Shown here piece by piece: positions 16,586 to 43,376 of a DNA stretch of 64,000 nucleotides; position 1 is the stretch's first letter; each line of letters begins with the position of its first letter. Position numbers and translations under genes: made by a program. Source of the DNA: an uncultured Dehalococcoidales bacterium (GTDB lineage Bacteria > Chloroflexota > Dehalococcoidia > Dehalococcoidales > E44-bin46); NCBI GenBank assembly GCA_964354655.1, contig CAYHAL010000003.1, positions 3,670-67,669 of the forward strand, in the 5' to 3' direction. The notes under the pieces were generated by a model that was not told where the DNA came from, ran no database searches, and worked only from the letters and a program-made list of their open reading frames with translations.

Positions 16586-16630
16586 AATAACCCGAGTAAG
16601 TAGGTCATTACTCGGGTTATTTTTATTTTT
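16586..16630. terminator. Bidirectional Rho-independent terminator between convergent livM and livG
   Basis: AATAACCCGAGTAA (16586-16599) pairs with TTACTCGGGTTATT (16608-16621). An A-tract precedes it and TTTTATTTTT follows. Confidence 0.7.
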
Positions 16631-16671
16631 GTCGTTAAAATAGCCGTTACCGAGCTATAGGTAAGTTGATA

Positions 16672-17442: not shown

Positions 17443-17836
17443 AAACCAGCCCTCCTTTCCTACCATGGTATGAATAAAAAGCAGAGCTACTGGTGTGAAT
17501 TTAGCATAGGTGGCTTAGTTTGTCAATAGAGTGTGGGTGGTGGTTCTGTTCGGCTGACGTTGATAACCCTAGAATAGATTAAGCAATTATCACCTTCAAA
17601 AGGCCTCATTAGCTGTCGGCAAAGCTTGTGCCTGTGGGATTTTATCAGCTTACGCCGCTCTTCATCCTCGCTAATGGTCCCCTCCTTCCACTTCTCGGCA
17701 ACAATGCTTGACACGAGGGCAGGCGTGTGCTACACTTCCCGCCGTAAGCTGGTAGTGGGCTGAAAAATAGCCGGCTTTTAAGCGTAACCACAATCGTTTA
17801 TTTTTGCTGCTCTAACAATAGCCAGAATTTTTATTT

Positions 17837-21266: not shown

Positions 21267-21920
21267 ATGGGAAAAGAGCAACAAGAATTATTAAAAGAGG
21301 CAAAAAATTCAATTATTAATTTCGATGTAGATAAGGCTAAGGAAACAGCCAAGAAAGGCTTGGCGCTTGGGATTACGCCGGCTGTAATAATAAGTGAGGG
21401 ATTTGTTCCTGGGATAACTGAGGTCGGTGATCTTTTTGATAGGGGACAATTATTCTTGCCGGAGTTGATATTGGCGGCCGAAGCCATGAAAGCCGGAACA
21501 ACTATATGTGAGGCTGCACTCCCCAAAAGTGAACTTAAGGCGAAGAAGAAGGTTGTAATAGGGACTGTAGAAGGAGATATTCACGACATTGGAAAATCAA
21601 TTGTCGTATCCTTCTTAATGGCCAACGGCTTTGAAGTCTATGATATAGGTAGAGATGCCCCAATTGAGAATTTTATTAATAAGGCTCGTGAGGTAAACGC
21701 AGATGTGATTGGAAGCAGTGCTTTATTGACGACAACTATGGAGGGGCAGAAGAAGATAGAGGAGGAGCTAAGGGAAGCCGGGTTGCGAGATAAAGTCAAG
21801 ACAATTGTGGGTGGAGCGCCGTGCAGCCAGGGATGGGCTGATCGGATAGGAGCCGATGCCTATGCTGAAAATGCTGTGGATGCAGTAATAAAGATAAAAG
21901 AATTAACCGGTTTAAGTTAA
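21267..21920 (+). CDS. mtbC: Methylamine-specific corrinoid protein (B12-binding, MtbC/MttC family)
   Basis: 217 aa with the B12-binding motif GDIHDIGK (DxHxxG) and ...GGAP. It lies directly upstream of mtbB and is a close paralogue of 32716..33366. Confidence 0.85.
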   Translation: MGKEQQELLKEAKNSIINFDVDKAKETAKKGLALGITPAVIISEGFVPGITEVGDLFDRGQLFLPELILAAEAMKAGTTICEAALPKSELKAKKKVVIGTVEGDIHDIGKSIVVSFLMANGFEVYDIGRDAPIENFINKAREVNADVIGSSALLTTTMEGQKKIEEELREAGLRDKVKTIVGGAPCSQGWADRIGADAYAENAVDAVIKIKELTGLS

Positions 21921-21944
21921 AAATATGTAGAAAGGAGGTGATTG

Positions 21945-23363
21945 ATGATGGCAAAGACGCTACAGCGCATGGGAGATGGTCGTATGGTGGAGATGACCGA
22001 GGCTGAGGTGAGGAAAGACATAGAAGAGGGGACTAAAGATGCTGCTAGCAGAGCCAAGGTTCCCCCGCTTTCTGAAGATGAGATAAAGCATATATTGGAT
22101 ATTTACACTCGGCCAGAAAGGGTTGTCAGCGTAGAGCCGGGGAACGAAGTTGTTCTATCCCATGATGAGGGTACCGTTAAAATAAATGCTGGTGTGTGTG
22201 GTGGAGCCGGATTAGGGATAGATTGCGGCAGGACGGTTGCCTCTGAGCTTTACGAGAGGGCGCTAGGTGCTGATATTATAGAATACGGCCATATTGACTA
22301 CAGCTTTAAGCCAATAAGGCCTATTTTGGCTGATGAGCGAATATTGGTGGAGCGAGCCTTATTGGTTACTACTGCCCCCTTCCTTTACGGGGCGATGCCC
22401 AACTTAGGCTTATATACTCAACCTGAAGGGCCCTTCCCCAATCCAACAGAACTGTTAAACAAGGGCCTTATAAAAGAAGCCAGGGAAAGCGGTGAAAGGA
22501 TGGTCGAGCAGGCGACTAACGATATGGTTTATATAGCCAGTGGTATCTATGAAGCTGGAGCCGATGCAATCAACTTTGATACTACAGGAGCGTTTGGAGA
22601 TCTAGACTTTGCCGCCGCTTTGACAGCAACTGAGCGCCTTAAGAAAAAGTATCCTGATATGTGTATAGAGATGGGGATGGCAGGGGAGTTTGTTCTAGGA
22701 ATACACGGAACGATAACCTATGATGGGGTGCGTTTGGCAGGTTTATACCCTCATCAACAGGTTAAATTAGCCGAGAAAGCTGGGGTTACTATTTTCGGAC
22801 CGGTGTGCAATATCGTCACTTCTAGGTCGTGTGCCTGGAATATAGCCCGTGTCATTACCTTCACCAAAGCCTGTGCTAAAGCTTCAAAGATACCAATCCA
22901 CAATAATATGGGAATGGGGGTTGGTGGCATTCCCTTGAATGATACCCCACCGGTAGATGCTGTAACCAGGGCGTCAAAAGCAGCTGTGGAAATCTGCCAG
23001 TTAGATGGGGTGTAGGTAGGCATTGGAGACATTCATGGCATGCTCGAAGCTCACGCCATGGCCTCAGGTATGGGTGGAATGCGTACCGCCGGAGATCTGG
23101 TGGCACGTATGGAAATGGCCAGAGGCATGAGAATTAAAGAAGCGAAAGAGTATGTCGCCAGCAAATTGAAGGTCTCGTTGAGGGAGCTCTCTGACCCGAT
23201 AGTCATGGGTGAGGTGAGAGATGAGCTTAAGCTAGGCCTCATTGCCCAGATGCCTAATCGTCCTAAGGGGATAGAGGCCAAGTTCCGTATTGCTGAACTA
23301 TTAGGAATCGAAATTAACTCGGTGAATAGATTCAAAGAAAAAGCCGGGCTTCCTGTTCGTTAA
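21945..23363 (+). CDS. mtbB: Dimethylamine:corrinoid methyltransferase with an in-frame UAG (pyrrolysine) codon at 23013-23015
   Basis: Track ORFs 21942..23015 and 23040..23363 share one frame and are separated by only a TAG. The joined product is about 472 aa and matches my recollection of Methanosarcina MtbB throughout (GHIDYSFKP, LYGAMPNLGLY, GMGVGGIP, DAVTRASKA, then TAG, then MRTAGDLVARME...KEAKEYVA). Confidence 0.88.
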
Positions 23364-23388
23364 ACCGAATAACTAATAGTGGGGGTGG

Positions 23389-23427
23389 AAAAAGACATCC
23401 ACCACCCCATATGGGGTGGTGGATGTC
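23389..23427. terminator. Perfect 15-bp hairpin between convergent mtbB and mtmB (terminator, T-tract on the - strand side)
   Basis: GACATCCACCACCCC (23394-23408), loop ATAT, GGGGTGGTGGATGTC (23413-23427). GGAAAAA precedes it, giving a U-tract for the minus-strand transcript. Confidence 0.7.
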
Positions 23428-23446
23428 TAGTGAGTTAAGCAACCTT

Positions 23447-24847
23447 TTACAGCTTAAACTCGAACCCAATTTTCTCCATGGTTTTCATTGCCTGCCCCAG
23501 CACTTGTAGATGCTCATCGGTGGGCTTCAGAGTGATAACGTTGTAGCACTCCTGGAAGGTCTTTCCTAAGGGTGCCGTGTTGAAGTTCCTCTTTGGCCCT
23601 GTCCCCTCGTAGTGGGTCACCAGCTTATCAAGTAAGTAGTTCACCTTTTCTGTCTCCATGCCGGCTACAGCTCGGGCGGCATAAGCCATCATGCGTGCTT
23701 CTATTGGGGTGGTGTAGTCTAGTCTCGTGCCTTTGGCCGAGGCGCAACCGCTCATAATCTCACGACCGCTAGCAGTATCGGTAATAGCCTGCCCAGCCGC
23801 CTCCAGCAAGCACATCTCAGTGCATGGTCCAGCGGCAGTATAATACTGGTTACCGGTGATAAAGTGTGAGTGGCGCTCAATAGCCATATTGGCATGCCCA
23901 GCGATCAACAACGTCTCCCTAGCCGTTGTGATTCCCCAGCGCACATGAGTTGGTCCATCCAGATGCCAGTCTGCTCCCACCAGTACGGGAGAGTTTAGAT
24001 GAGTGGCGGTGCAAACGATGGTGGTCTCTTCGAGCCCTCCGGCCCAGCCTCCCATGATAGGCATCTGCTCACACATAACAATATCGCCGTTCATCCTGTA
24101 ATGAGCAACAAAGGTAAGCGCCTCGAGATCAATCTTGAGCTCGCATAGCTGACTTACCTCATGATTATCACATGGTCTCATTCCTTCAGGAAAATCGGCA
24201 GCGATAACTCCCGCCGTGGTAAGCGGAGTCTCAGGGCCCTAGAAGCCCATCCCGGGGCGACCAGCTCGCCGTACTGCTTCACGAAGCGCCATTGCTTCTG
24301 CTTTAGCCGCCAAAATATCCCATGGGGTATTGGATGCCAAGGGGTGTCCATAGATAGTATTCCAAACCCCGTTGACGATGCAGTCTACCAAGGGCTCCCT
24401 GGCGAATGCTTCATGCGTCTCAATAAAGATATCCTCACTGACTGGGGCTCCAGTCGGCCCACCTTGGCACAGGGGTGGGCAGGGGTCATCAAAACTTCGG
24501 CCAGTCACACGCCGGGCATCCCGTCCCTCACCGATGACGATCTCACGAGGGACACCAGCCATAGTGTTCAGTATCTCCTCTTCGGTGTACTTGATGACAC
24601 GGCCGGTATCGATGCATAAAGTCCCACAGGTGACCAGCATCTCAAGGCCGGCCTGGAATAGGCGGTCTATCATATCCATATCAGTGGGGATAATCTTGGT
24701 CTTGTCGAACTTAAGATTATACTTTTCCTTTAATTTCCTTGCTGTTTCGGGGATGATTTTTCGATCCCATTCCGCCTCATCTACTTTGGGACCGGTAAGT
24801 GCCCGATCATAACTCTCGAACACATCACCCCTCTCTTTAACTACCAT
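23447..24847 (-). CDS. mtmB: Monomethylamine:corrinoid methyltransferase with an in-frame UAG (pyrrolysine) codon at 24241-24239
   Basis: Track ORFs 24239..24847 (202 aa) and 23447..24181 are in frame, and only a TAG interrupts them. The context is GRPGMG-TAG-GPET. Downstream segments NHEVSQLCELKIDL, WHLDGP, AAGPCTEMCLLEA, ITDTASGREI and GKTFQECY match remembered MtmB. Confidence 0.88.
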
Positions 24848-24962
24848 TTTCGCCTCCTTTATTTTGATTAAATCTTAGTTCATCACAGCTAAAAACTAAC
24901 CTGATATACCACCTCCTTTCTCTTAATTTGACAACACTATCTCACCGTATAAAGTTATAGTA

Positions 24963-24991
24963 TATTAAGTTAAGTATCATCGGCTTGTCAA
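24963..24991 (-). promoter_or_regulatory. Candidate promoter for mtmB
   Basis: On the minus strand: TTGACA (24991-24986), 17-nt spacer, TTAATA (24968-24963). Confidence 0.3.
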
Positions 24992-25149
24992 ATAAATGTT
25001 ATGGCTCATTAATCTTTGGTGATAACTTCTGGAGGCGATAGAGCTATTGAGGCGGCAAGAACCGTAAGTATTCCATAGAGGAGGAGATAAGGAAGGATAG
25101 TATTGGACGGGCATTGGAATTATACTTGATTGGACTATCAAAATGGCTA

Positions 25150-25857
25150 TTAGCCACCTAAATAGGCTTTCTTCACCTGTTCGTTTTCACGTAAGTCTTT
25201 GGCATCGCCCTTTAAGACAATGCTACCTGTCTCTAAGACATAGGCCTTTCGAGCCAGACTGAGAGCGAGGCGGGCATTCTGCTCCACTAAAACAATAGTT
25301 TTGCCCCCTTGGCTAATATCCTTTATGATTTTGGCGATCTCCATGACTAATATAGGCGACAAGCCCAGCGAGGGTTCATCCAAAAGGAGCAATTTAGGAT
25401 TGGACATCAGGCCACGCCCCATAGCCAGCATCTGCTGCTCACCACCGCTTAAGGTGCCGGCATATTGCTTCTGCCTTTCCTTTAGAACAGGAAAATGCCT
25501 AAAAACTTCTTCCAGGTCTCGGTTTACCCCGTCTTTATCTTCCCGCAGAAAGGCCCCCATGTAGAGGTTCTCCATCACCGTCATTTGGGGGAAGACCCTT
25601 CTTCCTTCGGGAACCTGAGCAATCCCCAGCTTATTGATTTTTTCGGGTGCTAATCTATCTATTCTCTGGCCTTCAAACCAGATTTCCCCCGAGGTGGGGT
25701 GCTTTAAGCCGGAGATAGCCCTCAAGGTGGTGGTTTTGCCTGCCCCATTGGAACCGATAAGGGTAACAATACTACCCTCTTCCACCTCCATGGAGACATC
25801 CCTAACGGCGGCTACCTTGTGATAATAAACCGTAACGTCCTTTACATTAAGCAACAC
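25150..25857 (-). CDS. livF: Liv-type ABC ATP-binding protein (LivF family), the only livF in the window
   Basis: Walker A GSNGAGKTT, signature LSGGEQQM, Walker B LLLLDEP. GTG start. It is preceded in frame by a 12-codon relic of a LivG C-terminus (EDAIEVYLGAEE, 25858-25893). Confidence 0.85.
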   Translation of the reverse strand: MLLNVKDVTVYYHKVAAVRDVSMEVEEGSIVTLIGSNGAGKTTTLRAISGLKHPTSGEIWFEGQRIDRLAPEKINKLGIAQVPEGRRVFPQMTVMENLYMGAFLREDKDGVNRDLEEVFRHFPVLKERQKQYAGTLSGGEQQMLAMGRGLMSNPKLLLLDEPSLGLSPILVMEIAKIIKDISQGGKTIVLVEQNARLALSLARKAYVLETGSIVLKGDAKDLRENEQVKKAYLGG

Positions 25858-25967
25858 TTCTTCTGCTCCTAAGTAGACTTCGATAGCATCTTCTCATTGA
25901 TGCCACTTTAGTAGTTAGGATACTACAAAATTATCTTCTTGTCAATATAGCCGAAGGAGGAACGAGG

Positions 25968-27800
25968 TTACTCCAAATGGGGATGCCTAGGGAAGTGCAT
26001 ACTCTCTATGAAGACCCGGCTGAAGTCCTTTAGATAGGAAAGCTCGAAGTATTCCACCTGCTCCGTCAGTCTTTGAATCTCTTCCCACTTCCCTCGATTT
26101 AGAAGGCAGAGCTTCGCTCCCTGTCCCGCCGTATTACCCACTGGCTTAATCTTGTTTAAGGGGAACTCGGGTAGCATTCCGATCCGAAGGACACTCTCCT
26201 TACTGACATAATTTCCAAAAGCCCCTGCCAAGTAGACCTTCTCCACCTCATTCAGGGTCACTCCCAACTCCCGCAACGCGATCTCTACCCCTGAGCGAAT
26301 AGCTCCCTTGGCCAACTGTAGCTCTCTCACATCCTGCTGGGTCAGGTAAATGGGTTTACTCCCATCACTCACCAGGAACTGAAGTTGGCCTTTCTCCCCC
26401 CGATGGATGCGATCACTGATGGGGAGGTTCGTCCGTTTCCCAAAGTTTCCCTTCTCATTGATTAACCCTACTTTGCAGAGCTCCCCCCCCAAGTCTATCA
26501 GTCCCGAACCACAGATCCCTTTTGGGACCCCATCCCCAATTATTTCCAGCCTTAAATCCTTGTCGTCTAGGAAAACGTGAGCCACTGCTCCAGGAAAAGC
26601 ACCCATTCCATACTTGATCCGTGCCCCCTCAAATGCTGGCCCCGCTGGTGTGGAGCATGCCAGTAAACGGTCTTTGTTTCCTAAAACAATTTCAGCGTTA
26701 GTTCCTATATCCACAAAGAGCTGGATACCTTTAGCTTGGTGAAGCCTGGTATAGAGAATACCGGCTGTGATGTCTGCTCCCACATAGCCTGAGATGCTGG
26801 GTAGGATGTGCACTTGCCCTTCTGGGTTCATGTCCAAGCCCAGCTCTAGCGCTGGCAGTATTAAGTTATCCCTCAGCACCGGGATGAAGGGGCTATGGTC
26901 AATGTTGGAGGGGTCTATGCCCGTGAAGAGGTGAATCATAGTGGGGTTCCCTGCCACAGTGGCTTTGTAGATATGGACAGGGCTCACCCTAGCTGCTTGA
27001 CACAACTGCTTAATCACCATGTTGATCCCTGAAGTTACCGCCATTTGCAGCTCCCTTAAACCCTCTTCTCCCTGCTCATGGACTTTTTTGATTCGACTGA
27101 TGACATCGTCCCCAAAGCTTCGCTGGGGGTTCATCCGGGAACGTACTGCAAGCTCCACACCTGTGTTTAGGCTTAAGAGATAGCCAGCTAGGGTTGTCGT
27201 CCCAATGTCTATAGCCACACCATACTGGGCTTCGGTTGTGTCCCCTGGTTCCAGGTCTAATACATGGTTTGCTGCCCAGGTTACCGTAAATTTAAAATCC
27301 CCTTCCCTAAGGAGGTTTGGGGCTTTCCTCAGAACTTGTAGGGGGAAAGTCAGTTGACCTTCCCCGAGTTCTTCTTGGAAACGAACGGTATCCGGGCGTT
27401 GGTCCTCTTGGCTTGGCGTGGGAAGCTCTAAATAAGCCTTTTTAACTCCGCTGTCCAAGGGGATACGAAGTACCTTGTTTAGTAGTTCCTTGGCGCGGAC
27501 AAGCTCTTCTACTTCAGGAATCTCCAGAACCAAATCCCGGTCAATATGCTGGATACAGGAAAGACGCCAGCCGGCTTCAAGCTCTGCCTCTGTCAGGTGC
27601 ACTCGCTCTGATTCAGCAGGCGCTCTAGCCCCCTTTGTGAAGAGGGCTCGACACTTCCCGCAGGTTCCCATCCCTCCACAAGCACTTGGCACGGAATAAC
27701 CCTGCCTGACAAGAAAGTGGAAAAGGTTCTCCCCTTCTTTAGCTTTTAACCTTTTCTTCTGGGGAAGGATGACGATGTTATATGTCTTTTCCTTCATCAT
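25968..27800 (-). CDS. RamA-like reductive activase of corrinoid enzymes (N-terminal 2Fe-2S ferredoxin + ASKHA/DUF4445 domain)
   Basis: 610 aa. The N-terminus has the plant-type ferredoxin motif CGGMGTCGKCR...C, followed by a long ASKHA-like region (DIGTTT, DIGTNAE). Confidence 0.75.
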   Translation of the reverse strand: MMKEKTYNIVILPQKKRLKAKEGENLFHFLVRQGYSVPSACGGMGTCGKCRALFTKGARAPAESERVHLTEAELEAGWRLSCIQHIDRDLVLEIPEVEELVRAKELLNKVLRIPLDSGVKKAYLELPTPSQEDQRPDTVRFQEELGEGQLTFPLQVLRKAPNLLREGDFKFTVTWAANHVLDLEPGDTTEAQYGVAIDIGTTTLAGYLLSLNTGVELAVRSRMNPQRSFGDDVISRIKKVHEQGEEGLRELQMAVTSGINMVIKQLCQAARVSPVHIYKATVAGNPTMIHLFTGIDPSNIDHSPFIPVLRDNLILPALELGLDMNPEGQVHILPSISGYVGADITAGILYTRLHQAKGIQLFVDIGTNAEIVLGNKDRLLACSTPAGPAFEGARIKYGMGAFPGAVAHVFLDDKDLRLEIIGDGVPKGICGSGLIDLGGELCKVGLINEKGNFGKRTNLPISDRIHRGEKGQLQFLVSDGSKPIYLTQQDVRELQLAKGAIRSGVEIALRELGVTLNEVEKVYLAGAFGNYVSKESVLRIGMLPEFPLNKIKPVGNTAGQGAKLCLLNRGKWEEIQRLTEQVEYFELSYLKDFSRVFIESMHFPRHPHLE

Positions 27801-27812
27801 TTGTTGGGTGGC

Positions 27813-28565
27813 TTATCTAGCCTTAAGACCCCGCTGGATCCATTCCCTTTCCCCCTCAACGCACTTTTGGGTTGACTTCTCTCGCACCGTGCCAAGGGGC
27901 ATAGCACAGGCATAAGACTTCCGCGGGTCCATCATGCACGACTCAGTGAGGTGCACTCCGATGTGGCTTCCGTCGACAACGGTGAATAACTTCTTCTGTT
28001 CCCGCGTGTCCCAATCTCCGTAACCAGGACTCCACCAGTAGACTACTACCCCACCGCAATCTCTATATGCCGGACACTTCTTGCCGATACAGATGCCGTG
28101 GGTGATTGCTTGATAGCCCTCGGGGCGGACATGGTCTTGGATTATCTCCCTCACCTTATAGGCCATGATATCCACAGCCGCTGAGCCAAACATATCCAAA
28201 ATATATCCCAGAACAGAATCCCCACCCTGGATAAGCTTCATAGCCTCCTCCTCCACACGCGGTCCAATGGTGATTATAAAAGCGGCTAGCTCTTTTGCCT
28301 CACGATGGCGAAGCGCCAAATCCCGGCTGTCAAATGAAACACCACCCTCGACCTCTACAGAAGAAGAGGTTACTCTCCCTATTTGGGAAATACCGTAACA
28401 CGCTACCGGCTCTAGTAGGGTCGGCCCAATCTCCATTGCCTGGTGAAAGACTTTTTGAATAGCCGGTGATGCTTGACTCGAGTTAGGATAGCCCAAATAA
28501 CGCCACACCTCATCTGAGCTTACCTCCACGTTTGAGAACTCAGCCTCAGGTACTATCTGAAGCAT
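27813..28565 (-). CDS. MetH activation-domain-like protein (vitamin B12-dependent methionine synthase activation region family)
   Basis: 250 aa with EVWRYLGY near the N-terminus and SPGYGDW...LF...IGVHLTESCMMDPRKS near the C-terminus. Both resemble the Met_synt_B12 domain, as recalled from memory. Confidence 0.5.
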   Translation of the reverse strand: MLQIVPEAEFSNVEVSSDEVWRYLGYPNSSQASPAIQKVFHQAMEIGPTLLEPVACYGISQIGRVTSSSVEVEGGVSFDSRDLALRHREAKELAAFIITIGPRVEEEAMKLIQGGDSVLGYILDMFGSAAVDIMAYKVREIIQDHVRPEGYQAITHGICIGKKCPAYRDCGGVVVYWWSPGYGDWDTREQKKLFTVVDGSHIGVHLTESCMMDPRKSYACAMPLGTVREKSTQKCVEGEREWIQRGLKAR

Positions 28566-28586
28566 AGCCCCCTCCTTTATCTCACT

Positions 28587-29390
28587 TTAACTCATTTTGC
28601 TTCTTACATACCGAACATATTGAAGACAGTGGGCATCAATCCCTAATAGAGCTTCTGAGGCTCGCAGGATGTTTTTCATTTCTTCATCCTTGGGATTAAT
28701 AACAGCCATATCCAATCCTGCCTCAAGAAGCATGGCTAAAAAGGCTTGGTTGAGCAGGGTGCGGCTGGGTAATCCAAAGGAGACATTGGATAACCCTGTT
28801 GTTGTCTTCACCCCTCGGCTCCCATAGCACCTCTTGATCTCCCGTATGGTATTGATGACAACACGGGCTTGGTCTGGATTACTCCCGATGGACATCACTA
28901 AAGGGTCTATGAACAACCGCTGCAGACTTACTCCGGCTTCTTCTAGAGTATTAATTAGCTGTTCGACTTCCTGAAGGCGCTCCTCCACGGTGTTAGGCAT
29001 CCCCGTCTTTCCCCCCATGGTCAGACCGATAATATCGGCATCGTACCCTTTAACAATGGGGATGAGCCCCTGTTGTAGTCTAGGGTCATTATTGATGGAG
29101 TTGATAACAGGGCGGGCTCGACAAAGCTTTAGTCCTGCTGCCATAGCCTCAGGTTTAGGGGTGTCGATGGCTAGGCGTACCTCTCCCACCTCATCATAAA
29201 TAAGCCCAATCACCCACTTCATGTCATCAATCTCCTGCTCCATGCTGGTAGCAGTATTAATATCAAGAATGTCAGCCCCAGCCTCTACCTGCTCTCGGGC
29301 AAGACGCCGGATAGTAGCTTCATCCTTGGCTTGAAGAGCCTCCTTGACCGCTTTTCGCGTCGAGTTCAATAATTCTCCAATAATTAACAC
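28587..29390 (-). CDS. Pterin-binding methyltetrahydrofolate:corrinoid methyltransferase (MeTr/MtgA/AcsE-like)
   Basis: 267 aa of DHPS-like pterin-binding barrel: IIGELLNSTRK, GADILDINT and TTGLSNVSFGLP. Confidence 0.75.
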   Translation of the reverse strand: MLIIGELLNSTRKAVKEALQAKDEATIRRLAREQVEAGADILDINTATSMEQEIDDMKWVIGLIYDEVGEVRLAIDTPKPEAMAAGLKLCRARPVINSINNDPRLQQGLIPIVKGYDADIIGLTMGGKTGMPNTVEERLQEVEQLINTLEEAGVSLQRLFIDPLVMSIGSNPDQARVVINTIREIKRCYGSRGVKTTTGLSNVSFGLPSRTLLNQAFLAMLLEAGLDMAVINPKDEEMKNILRASEALLGIDAHCLQYVRYVRSKMS

Positions 29391-29461
29391 TTCGTCCCTC
29401 CTTTAATCGGTATCGGCTATTTTACTCTCTCTCCGTTTTCCTATTCCTCGTCCTCATTATC

Positions 29462-29824
29462 TTAATCCTTAGCCCCCACCTCTCGTGTCTTTCCCCCCAA
29501 ATTGTCTAAATAGGCAATCCGGCGACGCTTAAAAACTGTTGCCGAATATTTTTCAATCTTCCATTTAGGAATTCCACATTTCTCGCATGTCCTAGAAAAC
29601 CATTTATTACGAAGCCATCGGGCAGCACGACTATTTCTAGAATCGTGTATCACCATCTGTTTATTACAATGAGTAACCACATAAGCATAAGAATCACTGG
29701 TAATTTCAAAGGTTTTGATTCCATGGAGAACTCCCCGCCGGGAAGGCCATAGTTTTATCTTTTCTACCAATTTAAAAAGGGGGACTCGTCTCCAATAGAT
29801 TTTTTTTCGTGTCTTACCCGACAA
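29462..29824 (-). CDS. pylSn: Pyrrolysyl-tRNA synthetase N-terminal tRNA-binding protein (bacterial split form)
   Basis: 120 aa with a TTG start behind GGGGGAGAGAG. Segments KLWPSRRGVLHGIK..., NSRNSRAARWLRNKWFSRTCEKCG resemble the PylRS N-domain (zinc-binding, basic). It lies immediately downstream of pylT. Confidence 0.8.
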   Translation of the reverse strand: MSGKTRKKIYWRRVPLFKLVEKIKLWPSRRGVLHGIKTFEITSDSYAYVVTHCNKQMVIHDSRNSRAARWLRNKWFSRTCEKCGIPKWKIEKYSATVFKRRRIAYLDNLGGKTREVGAKD

Positions 29825-29853
29825 CTCTCTCCCCCATTATTTTGATCAAATTG

Positions 29854-29925
29854 TGGCGGGGGGTCCGAGAGTTACACTCGGCTACACAAATTTAGAGTCT
29901 GTGTGATCTTTCCGATTAACCCCCC
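29854..29925 (-). tRNA. pylT: tRNA-Pyl (anticodon CUA), CCA encoded
   Basis: The minus-strand sequence is GGGGGGT-T-AATC-GGAAA-GATC-A-CACAGA-CTCTAAA-TTTGTG-TAG-CCGAG-TGTAACT-CTCGG-ACCCCCC-G-CCA. It has a 7-bp acceptor, one nucleotide between acceptor and D stem, a 5-nt D loop without GG, a 6-bp anticodon stem, a 3-nt variable loop and a non-canonical T loop. These are the published hallmarks of tRNA-Pyl. Confidence 0.9.
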
Positions 29926-29940
29926 GTTTTTACCATGCCT

Positions 29941-30771
29941 TCACTGAACACAACTGGCATGAACAAACATGGTAGCCACACCAATCTCCAGCACATCATG
30001 AATCAAACGCTCTTTGACCAAGAAATAAGCCTCTTCACTTAATCCCAGCGGTATCCCGGGAGCAGCAATAAAAGTTTCTGGCTTGATATGTCTTGCCTGT
30101 ATAATATTAGCCGAAGGTGAAGCATCAAAAAATACTGTATATCGCCTAAGTGCCTCTTCTAGATTCCTTTCCACTGTAATTTCATGCCCTTTAACCAGTG
30201 ACTCCATTCTATCTTGATTAGGGTCAAAAGCTGCTACCTTCGCTCCCTTCTTTTTAAGAGATAAAACTGCATTCCAGCCCACCCGACCTGCTCCCCCAAT
30301 CACTAACACCTGGCGCTGGCTTAAATCTCCTGCCATGGCTTCTAATGCCGAAACATATCCTTTTGCTGTTGCCTCTACATTATCAATAATCCTCCTTAAG
30401 GGAAAGTTCAGGGCAATAAACCGGTTATCATCAGCCAAAAAAACAATGTCTGCGCCTTTCTCAATCCCTTCCGCCAGTCCAGCTATATCGCTATCCCTTG
30501 TTTTAAAAGCATTAACTCCAATGTGAATCAAAATTCCTTCAACCGCCTCAACAAAGTTTTCAATAACTCCTTGTCCCGAGGTTATGGGAACCACAGCTAC
30601 CGTATGGGAACCGATGGCAGCTCTTACCTTTTCTTCGCTGTCTTCTATAGAGCGACTGGCAATCTCTTTGAGTGACAAACCTGTTTTTCGAACTAACTCA
30701 GCCTCATAGGCAGGAAGTTTCTGTATTATATCCATTATATCTTCTTTTTTCAGGCGCGTCACCTCATTCAC
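29941..30771 (-). CDS. pylD: Pyrrolysine synthase (NAD-dependent dehydrogenase)
   Basis: 276 aa with the Rossmann motif VLVIGGAGRVGWNA. It is adjacent to pylT/pylSn and completes the pylBCD set. Confidence 0.85.
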   Translation of the reverse strand: MNEVTRLKKEDIMDIIQKLPAYEAELVRKTGLSLKEIASRSIEDSEEKVRAAIGSHTVAVVPITSGQGVIENFVEAVEGILIHIGVNAFKTRDSDIAGLAEGIEKGADIVFLADDNRFIALNFPLRRIIDNVEATAKGYVSALEAMAGDLSQRQVLVIGGAGRVGWNAVLSLKKKGAKVAAFDPNQDRMESLVKGHEITVERNLEEALRRYTVFFDASPSANIIQARHIKPETFIAAPGIPLGLSEEAYFLVKERLIHDVLEIGVATMFVHASCVQ

Positions 30772-30966
30772 CCTCTGGACGATGAAAATATACCAGCAAG
30801 ACCCACCCCTTCAGACTGGCTTTGGAAGCAGTGGGTCTTCCAAGGTAACTCTATCTTGAAACTTGCATCCCTTTCTTGGCTATCGAAAATTCTAACATAC
30901 CCCGCTCGCTCCTTGTCAAGCGCAGTAGCTTTCCCCCCTGATTCAACTCCTAGCTTTCTGAAGAGT

Positions 30967-30997
30967 TTGACAAAATCGATTCTAACGGTGTTATAAT
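30967..30997 (+). promoter_or_regulatory. Candidate promoter for mttB-mttC (extended -10)
   Basis: TTGACA (30967-30972), then TGTTATAAT ending at 30997. The spacer is 19 nt, which is long, so confidence is low. Confidence 0.3.
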
Positions 30998-31205
30998 GAA
31001 GCCAAACTGGTTAGTATTCCCTTCCTTTATAAGCCTGGTGCTGCGCTAGCACTGGGGAAATTTATAGCATAATCGGTCTTGCTGACGCTAGTGTAAAGGC
31101 AAAAGAGTGGATCCCAAAATGGTGAAAGGAGGTGAGAAATTAGGGTTAGGATTAATTTAGTTTCAAAATAGTGAGGTTAAAAAAATTAAAGGAAGGAGGG
31201 GAAAA

Positions 31206-32678
31206 ATGATTAGAGGAACGAGAGCCTCATATACACAACTTTCAGGCTGTGGTCTCAATATGTTTACCGATGATGAATTAGCTGAGCTGCATAGAGCCAC
31301 ACTGGATGTTCTAGAAGATGGCGGCATCATGGTGCTCAATGATGAAGCGCAGGAGATTTTCTACTCCCACGGCTGTAAAGTCGATAAGAAAACTAACATC
31401 GTCAAGATACCCCCTTACCTCGTCAATGAGGCAATAAATTCAGCTCCATCAAAGGTACTGCTTGCCGGTCGAAATCCCAAGTATGACATCGTCTTGGAAG
31501 GCACCAGGGTGGCAAACACCACCTTTGGTGTAGGCATAAAGGTGCTTGATTTAGACACGGGCAAACACAGAAACTCGACAAACAAAGATCTGGCTGAATC
31601 CGCAATATTAGCCGATGCTATTGAGGGAGTAGATGTTTTTACCCAGTCAGTGGTCCCCAGAGATGCACCTAGTCAGGTGGAAGACCTTATTGCTGCCGAG
31701 ACATGTCTTAGCAATTGTAGCAAACACTTCCACCATGTTGATATATTGTCTACCGAGAGTGTCAGAAGGTATTTTGACATGGGTGCTGCCATAGCCGGAA
31801 GCGCTGAGGAGATGAGGCGGCGACCGGTTTGTTCTATTCTAATCTGCCCGGTCAGCCCGTTGCAGCTTAGTCCTGAAGCCTGCGAGGTTATTATTGAATC
31901 GGCAAGGTTAGGCATACCCTGTAACATTTTGTCAATGGCGCTATCTGGGGGTACTGCCCCAGTCACCAATGCAGGAACACTGATAGTCCATAATGCCGAG
32001 GTGCTGGGGGGCATAACTTTAAGCCAGCTTACTAAGAAGGGAGCACCGGTAATCTATGGCAGCTCCACCACCATGTTCGATCTAGCCCTGGCCATCGCAC
32101 CGGTGGGAGCACCGGAAATGGGCATGATAAGCGCAGCGGTAGCCAAGCTTGGCCAGTATTACAACCTGCCGACTTATGTCTCCGGGACCTAGGCAGATTC
32201 TAAGGTACCTGATGCGCAGGCAGCTCACGAAAAAACGATAACAAATCTGCTGCCGGCCATCGCTGGGGCTAATCTGATTTATGGCATGGGTATGTTAGAA
32301 TCAGGACAGACTTGGAGTCATGAGCAACTGGTAATTGATAACGACATTGTAACTATGGTTAAACGGGTGATTCAGGGGATCGACGTTACCGATGATACAA
32401 TGGCCGTTGACATCGTAAAGCAGGCTCATAAGATAAAAGACTTCTTACATCAGAAACACACCATTCAGTTTATGAGAAGTCAATCAAGACCAAAATTGAT
32501 TGACCGCACTACCCGGGGAACTTGGGAGGCTAAGGGAGGCAAAGATTTAACCCAGAGGGCAAAAGAAGAAGCACGCAGGATCATAAAGACCCATCAACCT
32601 GAGCCTTTAAGCGATGATGTAAAGAAGACGCTACGCGAAATTGTTGACAGTGCTAGAAAAGAACTTGTACCTGATTGA
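31206..32678 (+). CDS. mttB: Trimethylamine:corrinoid methyltransferase with an in-frame UAG (pyrrolysine) codon at 32190-32192
   Basis: Track ORFs 31206..32192 and 32286..32678 share one frame. The only interruption is the TAG in ...YVSGT-TAG-ADSKVPDAQAAHEKT.... The joined product of about 490 aa has an MttB-family sequence (LNDEAQEI, ANLIYGMGMLESG). Confidence 0.9.
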
Positions 32679-32715
32679 TAACTTTCTAATAACCAGAAGA
32701 AAGGAGAGCACTACT

Positions 32716-33366
32716 GTGGCAAAAGCACAAGAGATATTAGCAGCGGCAAAAAAAGCCATTATTGACTACGATGTGGTTAAGGCTGAGGAGGTTGCCAGGG
32801 AGGCTTTGGCTAGTGGTGTTGATCCGGTGGCACTGATAGAAAAGGGGTTTACTGCTGGAATAGCTGAGGTTGGTGACCGTTTTGATAAGGGGGAGGCATA
32901 CTTGCCAGAATTAATATTGGCGGCTGATGCCATGAAAGCAGGAACAGCAGTATGTGAGGCGGCACTCCCTAAAGGAACAATTAAGGAAAAGAAGAAGGTA
33001 GTAATAGGGACGGTGGAAGGAGATATTCACGACATCGGGAAGTCAATTGTTGCTTCCTTTTTAGCCGCCAACGGATTTGAGGTTCACGACATCGGTAGAG
33101 ATGCTCCTGCTGAGAAATTTGTGGAAACAGCTCGTGAGGTAAAAGCAGATGTGGTTGGGGCTAGCGCTCTATTGACAACAACTATGGAGCAGCAGAAGAA
33201 GATAGTGGAAGCGCTGAAAGAAGCCGGGCTGCGAGATAAAGTTAAAATAATTGTCGGTGGAGCACCAACCAGCCAGGAATGGGCTGAACAGATCGGAGCC
33301 GATGCCTATGCTGAAAATGCTGCGGAGGCAGTAGCTAAGGTAAAGCAATTAACCGGTTTGCAATAA
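32716..33366 (+). CDS. mttC: Trimethylamine-specific corrinoid protein (B12-binding)
   Basis: GTG at 32716 behind AAGGAGAG. The GDIHDIGK motif is present. It is highly similar to 21267..21920. The track start at 32641 overlaps mttB and is unlikely. Confidence 0.85.
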   Translation: MAKAQEILAAAKKAIIDYDVVKAEEVAREALASGVDPVALIEKGFTAGIAEVGDRFDKGEAYLPELILAADAMKAGTAVCEAALPKGTIKEKKKVVIGTVEGDIHDIGKSIVASFLAANGFEVHDIGRDAPAEKFVETAREVKADVVGASALLTTTMEQQKKIVEALKEAGLRDKVKIIVGGAPTSQEWAEQIGADAYAENAAEAVAKVKQLTGLQ

Positions 33367-35100: not shown

Positions 35101-35186
35101 GCCAGGTATAAGCTAGACAGAGCAGTACCTAGCCGGGGTGACAGGGATTAGTTACCAGCCCCGGCTAGGTTTGATAGGAAGTTTAT

Positions 35187-37023: not shown

Positions 37024-37056
37024 GAGAAATCCACACTAAATCAACACTGAGGAATA

Positions 37057-37095
37057 GAAAAAGCCTGAGTAATTATAATTACTCAGGCTTTTTCT
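37057..37095. terminator. Bidirectional Rho-independent terminator between convergent livM and livG (unit 2)
   Basis: AAGCCTGAGTAATT (37061-37074) pairs with AATTACTCAGGCTT (37077-37090), flanked by an A-tract and a T-tract. Confidence 0.75.
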
Positions 37096-37125
37096 AAACT
37101 GGTACCGTAAAAGTCTATTACCTAA

Positions 37126-41811: not shown

Positions 41812-41812
41812 A

Positions 41813-42472
41813 ATGATAATCGCTGAAAGAAAACCTATGGAAGAAATCCTCCAGATGATAGCCCCCTATAAGAAGGTACTTCTGGCCGGTTGTGGGACAT
41901 GTGTTGCCATCTGCTGGACGGGAGGAGAAAAGGAGGTCGGAATACTGGCTTCACAACTTCGGCTTGCCCGAGGTAAGGAGGGGGACAAGACCAATACTGT
42001 TGAAGCTACGGTTGAGAGGCAGTGTGAAAAGGAGATGGTAGAAGAGCTTAGAGACAAAGCCGAGGGAGTTGAAGCAGTTCTTTCTCTAGCCTGTGGGGCT
42101 GGGATACAAACCCTGGCTGAGGTATTTGAGGACAAGCCAGTTTTTCCAGCCGTGAATACCACCTTCCTCGGCAGTCCTGAAGGAGAGGGGGTGTGGCTGG
42201 AGAATTGTGGCGCCTGCGGGGATTGCTTCCTTGACCGAACCGGGGGTATCTGCCCCATGGTTCGCTGCGCCAAAGGGATTCTCAACGGTCCCTGTGGGGG
42301 CACAAGGAAGGGAGGGAAGTGTGAGATAGACCCAGATAAAGACTGTGGTTGGGTTCTCATCTACCGTAGGCTGGAGAAACAGGGAAGGCTTGACCTAATG
42401 CGGAAATATTATCCACCGAAAAACTTCCGGGCGGTGAAGAGACCGGGCAAGATGAAGGCGATAAAAGCTTAG
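41813..42472 (+). CDS. metV: Methylene-THF reductase accessory zinc-ribbon/FeS subunit
   Basis: 219 aa with CPMVRCAKGILNGPCGGTRKGGKCEIDPDKDCGW (MTHFR_C-like). It lies directly upstream of metF and ends in TAG. Confidence 0.8.
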   Translation: MIIAERKPMEEILQMIAPYKKVLLAGCGTCVAICWTGGEKEVGILASQLRLARGKEGDKTNTVEATVERQCEKEMVEELRDKAEGVEAVLSLACGAGIQTLAEVFEDKPVFPAVNTTFLGSPEGEGVWLENCGACGDCFLDRTGGICPMVRCAKGILNGPCGGTRKGGKCEIDPDKDCGWVLIYRRLEKQGRLDLMRKYYPPKNFRAVKRPGKMKAIKA

Positions 42473-42482
42473 GAGGCGAAGG

Positions 42483-43376
42483 ATGGCAAGGGATTTTAGA
42501 GAAACACTCAAAACAAAAGACTTTGTCGTAACTGCTGAGGCAGCTCCGACCAAAGGCTCTAGTGTAGAGAGGTCGCTGGAGCATATCGAGCTTCTCAAGG
42601 ATAAGGTAGATGCTCTCAATGTGACTGACAACCAGAGCTCGGTAATGCGCTATCCCTCTGTAGGCATCTGCCTTTTAATCAAAGAACACGGCGGGGAGGC
42701 AGTGCTTCAGGTCACCTGCCGGGACCGAAATCGCCTGGCAATTCAAGCGGATCTCCTCTTCGCCTGGTCTCGAGGGGTACGCAACGTCCTCTGTCTTACC
42801 GGTGATTCTATAGACGTTGGCGACCATAAGGAAGCAAAACCGGTCTTTGATCTCGAATCAGTGCAGCTTATCCACCTTGTCCATGCCTTGAACTCGGGCA
42901 AGGACATGGCGGGTAACGAGCTCAACGGAGGCACTGACTTCTGTATTGGGACTACTGCCACCCCTTCAGCCGACCCCATCGAGCCCCAGCTGGTTAAAGT
43001 GCAGAAGAAGCTGGAAGCCGGGGTAGACTTCATTCAAACACAGGCAGTTTACGACCTTGACGAGCTTAAGAGATTTGTGGAATTTGTGCGCAAACACGAC
43101 CAAAAGGTCAAAGTCCTATTGGGAATAGTGCCTGTTATTGGAGCAAAGATGGCACAATATATGAATGAGAACGTTCCCGGCATTTTTGTCCCTCAATATA
43201 TTATTGACGAACTGGCCCAAGCTCCGAAAGGCACAGGCATTAATAAAGGAATAGAGATAGCCGCCAGGTTAATAAGGAAAGCTAAGGAAGACAAACTATG
43301 CGATGGAACCCATATCATGTTCATTGGGAAAGAGGAGAGGGTTCCTGAGATTCTGGAAGCTGCCGGACTACTGTAA
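42483..43376 (+). CDS. metF: 5,10-methylenetetrahydrofolate reductase
   Basis: 297-aa MTHFR TIM-barrel sequence (VTAEAAPTKG, LQVTCRDRNR, LCLTGD, QTQAVYD). Confidence 0.85.
   Translation: MARDFRETLKTKDFVVTAEAAPTKGSSVERSLEHIELLKDKVDALNVTDNQSSVMRYPSVGICLLIKEHGGEAVLQVTCRDRNRLAIQADLLFAWSRGVRNVLCLTGDSIDVGDHKEAKPVFDLESVQLIHLVHALNSGKDMAGNELNGGTDFCIGTTATPSADPIEPQLVKVQKKLEAGVDFIQTQAVYDLDELKRFVEFVRKHDQKVKVLLGIVPVIGAKMAQYMNENVPGIFVPQYIIDELAQAPKGTGINKGIEIAARLIRKAKEDKLCDGTHIMFIGKEERVPEILEAAGLL

Follow-up and report, generated by a model that had tools for sequence, protein, structure and literature searches.

A methyltransferase, a stand-alone MetH-activation-domain-like protein and a RACo-type activase encoded beside the pyl genes of an uncultured Dehalococcoidales bacterium

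The stretch of DNA considered here (64,000 nucleotides, referred to as the window) comes from an uncultured sediment Dehalococcoidales bacterium and carries, on the minus strand and next to pyl genes, three genes encoding a methyltransferase of the MeTr type (267 aa), a 250-aa protein resembling the activation domain of MetH and a 610-aa RACo-type activase. These open reading frames directly follow pylD, pylT and pylSn on the same strand, as an earlier sequence-only reading of the window had proposed (Table 1). The gaps measure 71 nt between pylSn and the methyltransferase gene, 21 nt between the latter and the gene for the 250-aa protein, and 12 nt between this gene and that of the activase. 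The tRNA-Pyl gene was called neither by ARAGORN nor by Rfam. A metV-metF/hdrA/mvhD cluster occupies positions 38553-48351, 9.2 kb away in window coordinates, close to the 9 kb previously proposed; however, it lies on the opposite strand, and is therefore located beyond the 5' side of the module rather than downstream in the direction of transcription.

Table 1. Genes and other features of the window discussed in the text, in order of position
Feature	Coordinates	Strand	Remarks
MtbC-type corrinoid protein	21267..21920	+	DxHxxG motif; TIGR02370, 248 bits
mtbB, dimethylamine MT1	21942..23363	+	In-frame TAG; PF09505 both halves; PYLIS_2, 65 bits
mtmB, monomethylamine MT1	23447..24847	-	In-frame TAG; PF05369 both halves; last gene of same-strand string
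LivF-type ABC transporter ATPase	25150..25857	-	PF00005, 116 bits; LivF model 258 bits, under equivalog cut-off
RACo/RamQ-type ATP-dependent reductive activase of corrinoid proteins	25968..27800	-	610 aa; PF00111, PF17650, PF17651, PF14574
Stand-alone MetH-activation-domain-like protein (TM0269-like)	27813..28565	-	250 aa; PF02965, 1J6R profile and fold matches
Methyl-corrinoid:tetrahydrofolate methyltransferase (MT2, MtgA/MtqA/MeTr type)	28587..29390	-	267 aa, GTG start; PF00809, PRK07535
pylSn	29462..29824	-	TIGR03912, 127 bits; 71 nt upstream of methyltransferase gene
pylT (tRNA-Pyl)	29854..29925	-	CUA anticodon at 29895-29893; read by eye from sequence
pylD	29941..30771	-	TIGR03911, 267 bits; PF21455; first gene of same-strand string
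mttB, trimethylamine:corrinoid methyltransferase (MT1)	31206..32678	+	In-frame TAG (Pyl); PF06253 both halves; PYLIS_3, 93 bits
MttC-type corrinoid protein	32641..33366	+	TIGR02370, 250 bits
metV-metF, methylene-THF reductase	41813..43376	+	PF12225 and PF02219

The 267-aa protein had been described as a pterin-binding methyl-THF:corrinoid methyltransferase, and profile searches bear this out: it scores 98 bits against PF00809 (Pterin_bind; cut-off 25.5) and 279 bits against the NCBIfam model PRK07535 (methyl-THF:corrinoid methyltransferase; cut-off 259), with 149 bits against the AcsE model (cut-off 370). Its top PDB matches are 4O0Q (167 bits), an entry entitled 'Dihydropteroate synthase DHPS' that we take to be the O-demethylase MT2 of D. 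hafniense, and MeTr 2E7F (157 bits). All five pterin-site residues of MeTr are retained, D76, N97, D162, N202 and R210 being aligned with D75, N96, D160, N199 and R207 of that enzyme, and the protein falls outside the URO-D/CoM-methylase family. A CoM methylase is indeed absent from the window, as previously claimed: PF01208 (MtaA/MtbA family) has no match on the window's contig, and a genome-wide search returned a single distant URO-D relative, on contig C8. With a pterin-binding enzyme in place and no rival acceptor enzyme found, the methyl groups are predicted to enter the folate pool. MtbA/MtaA and RamA of Methanosarcina fill the equivalent slots of the pathway (an MT2 unloading the methyl-corrinoid and an ATP-dependent activase), but MtbA is a zinc enzyme with a URO-D fold and a thiol acceptor, whereas the 267-aa protein binds a pterin and has a TIM-barrel fold. 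A folate enzyme is thus found instead of the archaeal CoM methylase, but this is a known bacterial pattern and not a novelty, the use of THF as methyl acceptor being an established solution exemplified by MtgA of Desulfitobacterium hafniense and MtqA/RamQ of Eubacterium limosum (PMC8604678).

The 610-aa protein consists, in order, of an N-terminal 2Fe-2S domain (Fer2), RACo_linker, Raco_middle and RACo_C_ter (ASKHA; 268 bits). It is a reductive activase with the domains that the sequence-only reading had listed, but the likeness to RamA did not hold: assignment to archaeal RamA was rejected on the basis of the N-terminal 2Fe-2S domain and a score of 148 bits against TIGR04270 (cut-off 500), and the activase belongs with the bacterial RACo/RamQ proteins (AcsV model: 455 bits, cut-off 800). 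RamA bears C-terminal 4Fe-4S ferredoxin motifs. A second RACo paralog is encoded beside the acs genes on contig C34, where a second MeTr/AcsE-like gene adjoins acsC; given these second copies, those of the window are dedicated paralogs. The genome carries ACS on contig C34 and FTHFS on contig C30.

In E. limosum, the genes for MtqA and RamQ are neighbours within a cluster for methyl-THF oxidation, and methyl transfer to THF has been reconstituted in vitro from MtqA, RamQ, MtqC and an MttB-family enzyme (PMC8604678). The window resembles this system (with MtqC and MtpB/MtcB/MtyB) and MtgA/MtgC/MtgB in having a pterin-binding MT2 gene beside a RACo-type activase gene, near methyl-THF oxidation genes, and it resembles E. 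limosum in that several MttB-family MT1 enzymes would be served via shared corrinoid proteins (PMC8604678). The combination of a methyl-corrinoid:THF methyltransferase and an ATP-dependent activase is an already characterised bacterial design, not new in kind. Unlike the quaternary-amine enzymes of E. limosum and D. hafniense, which are non-Pyl, the MT1 enzymes here are the pyrrolysine-dependent MttB, MtbB and MtmB, and the module is joined to the pyl operon. No component of the reconstituted E. limosum system corresponds to the activation-domain protein, whose gene is located here between those of methyltransferase and activase, and that system runs in vitro without it (PMC8604678); the 250-aa protein is, therefore, no general requirement.

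This protein had been likened to the MetH activation domain. Its match to PF02965 is marginal (25.6 bits for a cut-off of 25), and the resemblance is confirmed by profile and fold: its family profile matches PDB 1J6R (TM0269) with an E value of 1e-11, and a Foldseek search with its AlphaFold2 model (pLDDT 82) ranks 1J6R first, ahead of MetH reactivation domains (E 2.6e-12 and TM 0.80 over the target for 1J6R), while hhalign gives a probability of 94% for residues 897-1227 of E. coli MetH. The best match on both counts, TM0269, is a stand-alone protein of Thermotoga maritima that reactivates the short MetH TM0268. Both are separate polypeptides of about 200-250 aa with the P-G-Y and PRK(S/T) motifs, but the 250-aa protein differs in having a tryptophan, W177, a three-Cys insert of about 22 aa and a C-terminal tail that contains a single conserved Cys. 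TM0269 reportedly supports SAM-dependent reactivation, a result ascribed to Huang et al. in 2007, and it serves a methionine synthase, whereas no MetH homocysteine module was found in the genome considered here. The activation domain of E. coli MetH (897-1227; 1MSK, 1K7Y, 3IVA) has the same fold (Foldseek E 1e-7 to 1e-9), equivalents of its Y1130 and Y1139 are present, and the predicted partner is, here too, a DxHxxG corrinoid domain. However, the 250-aa protein lacks a fused B12 domain, falls about 80 residues short of the MetH domain in length and has four conserved cysteines: C159, C164 and C170 in the insert, plus C235. The family is large (about 2000 representative clusters), and in this subfamily the internal insert replaces the usual C-terminal Cys motif. 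The four cysteines probably bind metal, as an Fe-S cluster or Zn, and may form a single site, the stretches that carry them (residues 156-173 and 231-250) being modelled at pLDDT <50.

W177 occupies the Arg position of the MetH SAM motif RxxxGY, equivalent by hhalign to R1134 of E. coli MetH, which is listed as a SAM ribose contact (PMC1282579). This position is Trp in 57/61 close relatives and Arg in 106/139 distant ones. The protein could act like TM0269 and the MetH domain, binding SAM, methylating Co(I) and pulling Co(II) reduction, beside or instead of the activase. Its fold and family are consistent with such a role, as are the invariant P-G-Y of the motif and the alignment of Y151 and Y182 with the MetH SAM contacts Y1130 and Y1139 (residue roles: PMC1282579). 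In Bacillota-type loci, relatives are paired with a homocysteine methyltransferase and a corrinoid protein, with no RACo within 8 kb, and a MetH-like SAM mechanism is, therefore, the natural reading there. MetH-like SAM-dependent reactivation nevertheless seems doubtful for this subfamily, because the Arg has been lost from its motif; D946 and the Y1189/Y1190 region of MetH are not alignable to the 250-aa protein (hhalign), and a second, SAM-consuming route would be redundant beside the dedicated ATP-dependent activase, whose gene lies 12 nt downstream. This mode of action is possible but somewhat unlikely.

The order pylSc-mtbC-pylB-pylC-pylD-pylSn-MeTr-AD-RACo (AD, activation-domain protein) is complete at two loci (L019 and L024) and partial at four others (L018, L020, L021 and L035), and at L022 the AD gene immediately precedes pylSc; L018-L022, L024 and L035 are from Dehalococcoidales or Dehalococcoidia MAGs. 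In different MAGs, the activase slot is held by two types of RACo paralog (92% and about 36% identical to the window's RACo), an indication that this position requires an activase. The sequence-only reading had called the activation-domain protein an unusual partner; it is present, but less unusual than supposed, stand-alone activation proteins often being encoded next to an MttB-family gene in the genomes examined (Bacillota-type, Aminicenantes and Chloroflexota). Distant relatives are so placed at five Aminicenantes loci, two Eubacteriales loci and in two other Chloroflexota genomes, in the order RACo-mttC-mttB-AD at the five Aminicenantes loci and one of the two Eubacteriales loci (L029). 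In the phylum to which an Eubacteriales MAG belongs, 13 of the 20 top-scoring loci had an MttB-family neighbour (neighbour Pfam tally: MTTB 10, B12-binding 7, S-methyl_trans 6), and an MttB-family gene is present in all six checked genomes carrying the subfamily. Among 201 sampled Chloroflexota genomes, 24 of the 28 carrying MttB had no match to the 250-aa protein and four of the eight with a match had no MttB; the association is, therefore, common without being obligatory.

The 250-aa protein might also have nothing to do with methyl transfer, as a degenerate, SAM-blind remnant or a servant of another B12 enzyme brought here by operon drift. The loss of the SAM-motif Arg would fit, as would the dispensability of such a protein in E. 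limosum (PMC8604678) and the position of the subfamily gene among housekeeping genes (ThiF, MnmA, HPPK, PTPS), away from methyltransferase genes, at two of about nine independent loci. This is improbable, given the strong conservation of the subfamily (across 22 sequences that are 50-82% identical to the window's copy, 33 columns are invariant and mean column identity is 67%), neighbours 21 and 12 nt away in an order retained at at least six loci, and the recurrence of MttB-family and corrinoid genes next to distant relatives in other phyla.

The trio is likely to form the common back end of a bacterial system for pyrrolysine-dependent methyl transfer from methylamines to tetrahydrofolate, with the 250-aa protein as a helper in reactivation. 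The identities of the genes, their folds and their conserved order are observed; from them we infer the catalytic steps, and the partner and cofactors of the helper, as follows. MttB, MtbB and MtmB (one in-frame TAG each) would methylate Co(I) of MttC and MtbC, and THF would then receive the methyl group of methyl-Co(III) through the 267-aa enzyme; the resulting methyl-THF would be oxidised by the nearby MetFV-Hdr-type reductase or consumed by ACS/CoFeSP encoded elsewhere in the genome. When a corrinoid lapses to inactive Co(II), the activase would restore Co(I) at the expense of ATP. Like the activation domain in MetH, the 250-aa protein would most likely dock on the corrinoid protein in its Co(II) state, at the B12-binding domain, and aid reactivation, either by trapping Co(I) or by keeping the carrier in an open form for the activase. 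MtbC, whose D104, H106 and G109 are invariant in an alignment, is the probable methyl carrier and substrate of both the activase and the 250-aa protein. A complex predicted for MtbC and the 250-aa protein scored 0.53 (best control, 0.02), with at least 78% of contacts shared between runs and a partner pLDDT of at least 77. The pass mark was reached by 58/80 solved complexes and 2/110 mismatched pairs, but at scores of 0.60 or less just 7/80 solved complexes passed, together with both passing mismatches. Solved MetH fragments containing the B12 and reactivation domains exist, so the pass may reflect only that likeness, and the model weakly supports the pairing.

Clusters combining stand-alone activation proteins with MttB-family genes have been mentioned in passing (Williams et al., 2022; PMC9324843). 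[quoted passage not shown] Methionine-making has been proposed for such clusters (PMC9324843), which were also found in this analysis, and the trio could accordingly be seen as a split methionine synthase, in which MeTr would load the corrinoid from methyl-THF, the 250-aa module would reactivate it and the remaining component would be a homocysteine methylase that has escaped recognition. The genome has no other recognisable methionine synthase, and the arrangement resembles the dual-use MtgC/MtgD system of marine Roseobacters, Ruegeria pomeroyi using a pterin-binding MT2 and a shared corrinoid protein bidirectionally (PMC12478193). This is, however, very improbable: the 95%-complete genome has no homocysteine-binding module (PF02574, PF01717), the trio is embedded in a pyl/methylamine cluster in several MAGs, and the nearby MetFV-Hdr cluster is better explained by a catabolic role.

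For the preferred methylamine:tetrahydrofolate system, the new elements are the retention of the order MeTr, activation-domain protein, RACo in or beside the pyl cluster of several Dehalococcoidales metagenome genomes, and the distinct form of the subfamily, with Trp for the Arg of RxxxGY and an internal insert in place of the C-terminal Cys motif. The putative helper is a little-studied protein added, in a lineage-specific form, to the usual bacterial design. The range first assigned to the module begins at 25150 and therefore also covers the LivF-type gene, left unmentioned by the sequence-only reading, which belongs to flanking Liv-type transporters and has no part in the methyl-transfer chemistry. 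No other LivF-like gene was found in the window ORFs that were scanned, two SBP/permease/LivG sets being among these ORFs.

The methylamine genes of this genome (G000; 1.375 Mb in 46 contigs, estimated completeness 95%; the window is G000:C3:3670-67669) include a conserved three-gene module joined to the Dehalococcoidales pyl operon, and this module contains a lineage-specific form of an unstudied helper family. These two features are new, whereas neither the THF route nor the activase is out of the ordinary in bacteria. Pyl systems have been described in Chloroflexi (Mukai et al., 2017), and the closest relatives of the genes studied here come from Dehalococcoidales or Dehalococcoidia MAGs, closed genomes of 1.4–1.9 Mb being present among the sampled genomes of the same order. 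An ORF listing and family scans delineated the pyl and methylamine island (see the table). The sequence-only reading had placed a pterin-binding methyltransferase (267 aa), a protein resembling the activation domain of MetH (250 aa, hereafter AD) and a reductive activase (610 aa) on the strand of pylD-pylT-pylSn, and this map proved right in every particular; its interpretation of the three genes is also supported. The range that it gave for the module, from 25150, does enclose the three genes, but it also includes a LivF-like gene, and the metFV-hdr cluster, said to lie downstream, does so in window coordinates but not by transcription, since it is on the other strand. The pylT gene was read by eye, with no call by ARAGORN or Rfam. 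A promoter and terminator scan of 23000-31300 gave the same counts as shuffled sequences, making it uninformative on operon limits, and found no terminator-like site between genes.

Features of the pyl and methylamine island (window coordinates), and activase genes occupying the slot after AD in related loci (locus coordinates)
Feature	Position	Strand	Remark
pylSc	17837-18673	+	
pylB	18716-19831	+	
pylC	19828-21009	+	
mtbC	21267-21920	+	
mtbB	21942-23363	+	in-frame TAG, PYLIS_2 match
mtmB	24847-23447	-	in-frame TAG; last of minus-strand series
LivF-type ABC ATPase	25857-25150	-	
610-aa activase	27800-25968	-	
250-aa protein (AD)	28565-27813	-	
267-aa pterin-binding methyltransferase	29390-28587	-	
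pylSn	29824-29462	-	
pylT	29925-29854	-	
pylD	30771-29941	-	first in transcription order
mttB	31206-32678	+	in-frame TAG, PYLIS_3 match
mttC	32641-33366	+	
Liv-type ABC transporter	between mttC and hdrA-like cluster	+	
hdrA-like/mvhD/metV/metF cluster	38553-48351	+	
RACo after AD, L019	8833-10743		
RACo after AD, L020	1501-3411		
RACo after AD, L024	8799-10688		
RACo after AD, L035	207-2090		
RACo after AD, L021	8767-10590		

The pterin-binding character claimed for the 267-aa protein was borne out. The protein matches PF00809 with 98 bits (cut-off 25.5) over profile positions 2–243 of 244, and the NCBIfam model PRK07535 (methyl-THF:corrinoid methyltransferase) with 279 bits (cut-off 259). Among solved structures it is closest to 4O0Q (167 bits), a DHPS-family entry by its deposition that we take to be the MT2 (methyl-corrinoid unloading enzyme) of a Desulfitobacterium hafniense O-demethylase, and to the Moorella MeTr (157 bits). 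In a phmmer alignment to 2E7F, residues D76, N97, D162, N202 and R210 correspond to D75, N96, D160, N199 and R207 of MeTr, presumably its pterin-site residues (roles according to Doukov et al.), all five of which are thus retained. A second PF00809 paralog, scoring 207 bits on the AcsE model, adjoins acsC on contig C34, which also carries ACS and a second RACo gene; FTHFS is found on C30. Given that the genome has this AcsE-like paralog of its own and that the 267-aa protein fails the AcsE model NF040758 (149 bits, cut-off 370), the copy in the pyl island is a dedicated paralog, a predicted MT2, rather than the Wood–Ljungdahl AcsE. On the best reading, the 267-aa protein would move methyl groups between THF and the methyl-Co(III) form of a corrinoid protein. 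A CoM methylase (URO-D, PF01208) was considered as the acceptor enzyme and rejected: in agreement with the sequence-only reading, there is no MtbA/MtaA-like match on the window's contig, and the whole genome contains one distant match, a 428-aa protein on C8 scoring 23–30 bits on the MtaA/MtbA models (cut-offs 235–600). This protein (790-2076 of locus L001, G000:C8:18564-22124) belongs to a second small corrinoid system, in which a corrinoid protein (165-797) overlaps its start; its C-terminal half is a distant URO-D/MtaA-family domain, and an ORF (2599-3093) resembling sulfopyruvate or phosphonopyruvate decarboxylase, below the cut-off of that model, follows.

The 610-aa protein has the domain order PF00111 (31.8 bits), PF17650 (73.5 bits), PF17651 (198 bits) and PF14574 (268 bits), corresponding to an N-terminal 2Fe-2S domain, a linker, a middle domain and a C-terminal ASKHA ATPase domain. 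The 2Fe-2S/ASKHA layout previously noted therefore stands, but the protein is not an archaeal RamA: it reaches 148 bits on the RamA model (TIGR04270; cut-off 500), with the ASKHA part only covered, and its iron–sulfur domain is of the N-terminal 2Fe-2S type, as opposed to the C-terminal 4Fe-4S motifs of RamA. An AcsV/RACo ortholog serving CoFeSP was also rejected (455 bits against a cut-off of 800, NF040756), and the RACo paralog on the acs contig C34 is 35% identical to this activase. The protein is of the bacterial RACo/RamQ type.

The 250-aa protein has the predicted similarity to the MetH activation domain, marginally in its PF02965 score (25.6 bits, cut-off 25) and also in its fold. A profile built from 22 relatives retrieved one solved protein only, TM0269 of Thermotoga maritima (1J6R, E 1e-11), and 1J6R is also the top Foldseek match (E 2.6e-12, TM 0.80 over the target) of the AlphaFold2 model (pLDDT 82, pTM 0.80), the matches after it being MetH reactivation domains only, 17 entries at E < 1e-6, the last at E 5e-7. 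The family, which hhalign aligned with E. coli MetH 897–1227 at a probability of 94%, comprises 2035 representative proteins at E <= 0.001, nearly all of them stand-alone and 200–260 aa long, and the 250-aa protein is the sole PF02965 match in G000. In MetH, R1134 of the RxxxGY motif (R1134...G1138-Y1139) contacts the ribose of SAM, the other SAM contacts being D946, E1101, Y1130 and Y1189/Y1190 (PMC1282579). The 250-aa protein retains the Gly and Tyr of this motif (G181 and Y182), and has W177 in place of the Arg, this position being occupied by Trp in 57 of 61 close relatives and by Arg in 106 of 139 distant ones. In the hhalign alignment, Y1130 of MetH corresponds to Y151, and E1101 to Y136, within a helix of uncertain register; the D946 and Y1189/Y1190 regions lie outside the match. 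It is possible, but rather doubtful, that the protein still uses SAM, given the loss of the motif Arg and the presence of an ATP-driven activase encoded directly behind it. That the trio represents a split methionine synthase is very improbable, as PF02574 (the MetH/BHMT module) and PF01717 (MetE and core methionine synthases), the homocysteine modules searched for, have no match in G000 at its 95% completeness. No recognisable methionine synthase was found in this genome, and the neighbours of the 250-aa gene are pyl and methylamine methyltransferase genes.

The subfamily formed by the 250-aa protein and its close relatives differs from the rest of the family in three linked ways: the Arg is lost, the usual cysteines are missing and new ones are present. 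Among the 139 distant relatives, 66 have a Cys directly after P-G-Y and 93 a C-terminal CxxCx2-8C motif; 62 have both, so that a set of four cysteines is common among distant relatives. In the subfamily, P-G-Y is followed by Gly, and C235 is the only conserved Cys at the C-terminus; C159, C164 and C170, all invariant, lie on an insert some 22 residues long that none of the 139 distant relatives has. Comparison of P0067-P0214, relatives of the 250-aa protein, resolves the stand-alone family into three cysteine layouts: one without these motifs, as in TM0269 (42/139), one with Cys after P-G-Y and the C-terminal CxxCx2-8C, and one, confined to the Dehalococcoidales subfamily, with an internal Cx4Cx5C insert and one tail Cys. 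Because the number of cysteines stays at four while their positions differ, these residues suggest a metal site in the 250-aa protein; AlphaFold2 confidence at 156–173 and 231–250 is too low to judge whether the four cysteines meet.

The loci of relatives were collected by a scan of one genome per species, which yielded 18 loci, followed by tblastn with the proteins of the window. The full series pylSc-mtbC-pylB-pylC-pylD-pylSn-MeTr-AD-RACo is present in two Dehalococcoidales MAGs (L019 and L024), and parts of it, broken by contig ends, are found at four further loci (L018, L020, L021 and L035). At L022 (37-5024), AD is the immediate upstream neighbour of pylSc (AD-pylSc-mtbC-pylB-pylC...pylSn) and no methyltransferase gene separates the two, an arrangement that links the helper with the pyl cluster proper. 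The RACo gene that follows AD shares 92% identity with that of the window in L021 and about 36% in L019, L020, L024 and L035, indicating that two RACo paralog types or lineages occupy one operon position. At L023 and at L025/L026 (one gene split over two contigs), AD is found among housekeeping genes; these genomes carry MttB-family genes all the same.

Distant AD relatives (25–38% identity) adjoin MttB-family genes in two further genomes of Chloroflexota and at seven MAG loci, five from Aminicenantes and two from Eubacteriales. The order RACo-mttC-mttB-AD is common to the five Aminicenantes loci and one of the Eubacteriales loci (L029), the other (L030) having mttB-AD only. In the phylum of the Eubacteriales MAG, the AD family profile matches 215 of 301 sampled genomes, a tally that includes the unpublished G357, G229 and G254, on none of which the locus-level claims rest; about 70 of these matches are strong stand-alone hits, and the weaker ones are full-length MetH. 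An MttB-family gene lies within about 600 nt of AD at 13 of the 20 best-scoring loci of that phylum, and three more have a corrinoid protein within about 3 kb, two of them together with a pterin-binding gene. The sample is not unbiased, since the profile used to rank the loci is centred on the 250-aa protein. The Pfam tally of neighbours at the 20 loci is MTTB 10, B12-binding 7, homocysteine S-methyltransferase 6 and Pterin_bind 2. Among 201 Chloroflexota genomes, MttB was found in 4 of the 8 with a hit to the 250-aa protein and 24 of the 193 without, small counts from related, non-independent genomes and a single-protein query from which no statistical argument is drawn. Open frames of 640–770 aa were listed as candidate AD–MttB fusions, of which none was established; at the two loci checked, L087 and L089, frame arithmetic on tblastn coordinates puts AD and MttB in different frames.

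In E. limosum, MtqA and RamQ are encoded by adjacent genes inside a methyl-THF oxidation cluster, and the two proteins, combined with MtqC and enzymes of the MttB family, reconstitute the transfer of methyl groups to THF (PMC8604678). This system needs no activation-domain protein (PMC8604678), whereas the module in the window includes one. In diverse bacteria, an MttB/MtgB homologue and a corrinoid protein have been described as encoded in clusters together with a homocysteine methyltransferase and an activation protein, with a proposed route to methionine (Williams et al., 2022; PMC9324843); this was the only publication found on activation domains together with corrinoid proteins or MttB. 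Genetic data have shown that RamA-like proteins reactivate B12 for forms of MetH without PF02965 (Price et al., 2018; PMC5764234). The literature search found no paper on the Cys motifs, and none that places a stand-alone protein of the activation-domain type in a system that is THF-directed or depends on Pyl. The best reading of the module is a standard three-component scheme, in which MT1 (MttB, MtbB or MtmB) would methylate a Co(I) corrinoid protein, MT2 (the 267-aa enzyme) would hand the methyl group to THF, and MetFV-Hdr and the remaining Wood–Ljungdahl genes would take methyl-THF onward, the RACo-type activase repairing Co(II) with ATP. The 250-aa protein would, as in MetH, dock on the B12 domain of a carrier, here MtbC or MttC, both of which have the DxHxxG motif. 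Complex prediction for MtbC and the 250-aa protein gave a score of 0.53 (best control, 0.02). Of 80 solved complexes, 58 reach the pass mark, as do 2 of 110 mismatched pairs, but passes at scores of 0.60 or less comprise only seven of the solved complexes and include both mismatches; agreement between runs is at least 78% of contacts, with a partner pLDDT of at least 77. Fragments of MetH comprising the B12 and reactivation domains have already been solved, so the predicted complex may reflect likeness only, and it lends weak support to the proposed docking on MtbC.

The cysteines also allow a more speculative proposal, which we consider unlikely: the 250-aa protein may carry a metal (Fe-S or Zn) and serve the RACo activase as a subunit for docking or electron relay, rather than being a SAM-dependent methylase, the two forming an undescribed reactivation machine for MttB-family systems. 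Such a subunit would keep the corrinoid protein, in its Co(II) state, open or relay the electron, and the same machine, with a different Cys layout, would occur in many Bacillota and Aminicenantes. The cysteines lie in an internal insert where other family members have them in the C-terminal tail, yet there are four in either case; on this proposal, what is conserved as a function would be the metal site and not the binding of SAM.

Among the major one-carbon compounds of saline and wetland sediments are the methylamines, whose anaerobic use is usually attributed to methanogens. The gene set predicts that small-genome Dehalococcoidales use them too, competing for trimethylamine, dimethylamine and monomethylamine and directing the methyl groups into the folate pathway rather than to methane. 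Metagenomes of wetland, marsh and mangrove and of marine and freshwater sediment, from 17 studies in all, contain closely similar DNA, a distribution consistent with a role in methylamine turnover in these environments; no RNA data set was listed as containing 25968-29390. These findings also point to a widespread, unstudied family of stand-alone activation-domain proteins travelling with MttB-family methyltransferases, and the role of this family, be it SAM binding, metal binding or that of a chaperone, could fill a gap in our understanding of the upkeep of B12 carriers outside methionine synthase.

Two sets of Liv-type ABC transporter genes border the island (13128-17466 and 33628-37893, plus 25150-25857), each with two permeases, a substrate-binding protein of unusual length (503 and 490 aa) and, on the opposite strand, a LivG-like ATPase; they are candidates for methylamine uptake. 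The only LivF-like ATPase gene among the ORFs scanned is positioned after the activase gene, and its product may serve both sets. Upstream of the island, 1773-4516 encodes a GAF/PAS histidine kinase along with a LuxR-type response regulator; then come, at 4554-8799, aconitase-family, isopropylmalate/isocitrate dehydrogenase and homocitrate/isopropylmalate synthase-like genes and, at 9338-11874, a ZnuA/ABC-3 metal transporter. Elsewhere in the genome, a second MttB-family frame (G000:C1:164620-166029) contains one in-frame TAA; an assembly error may account for this, or the gene may be broken, or the frame may hold two genes.
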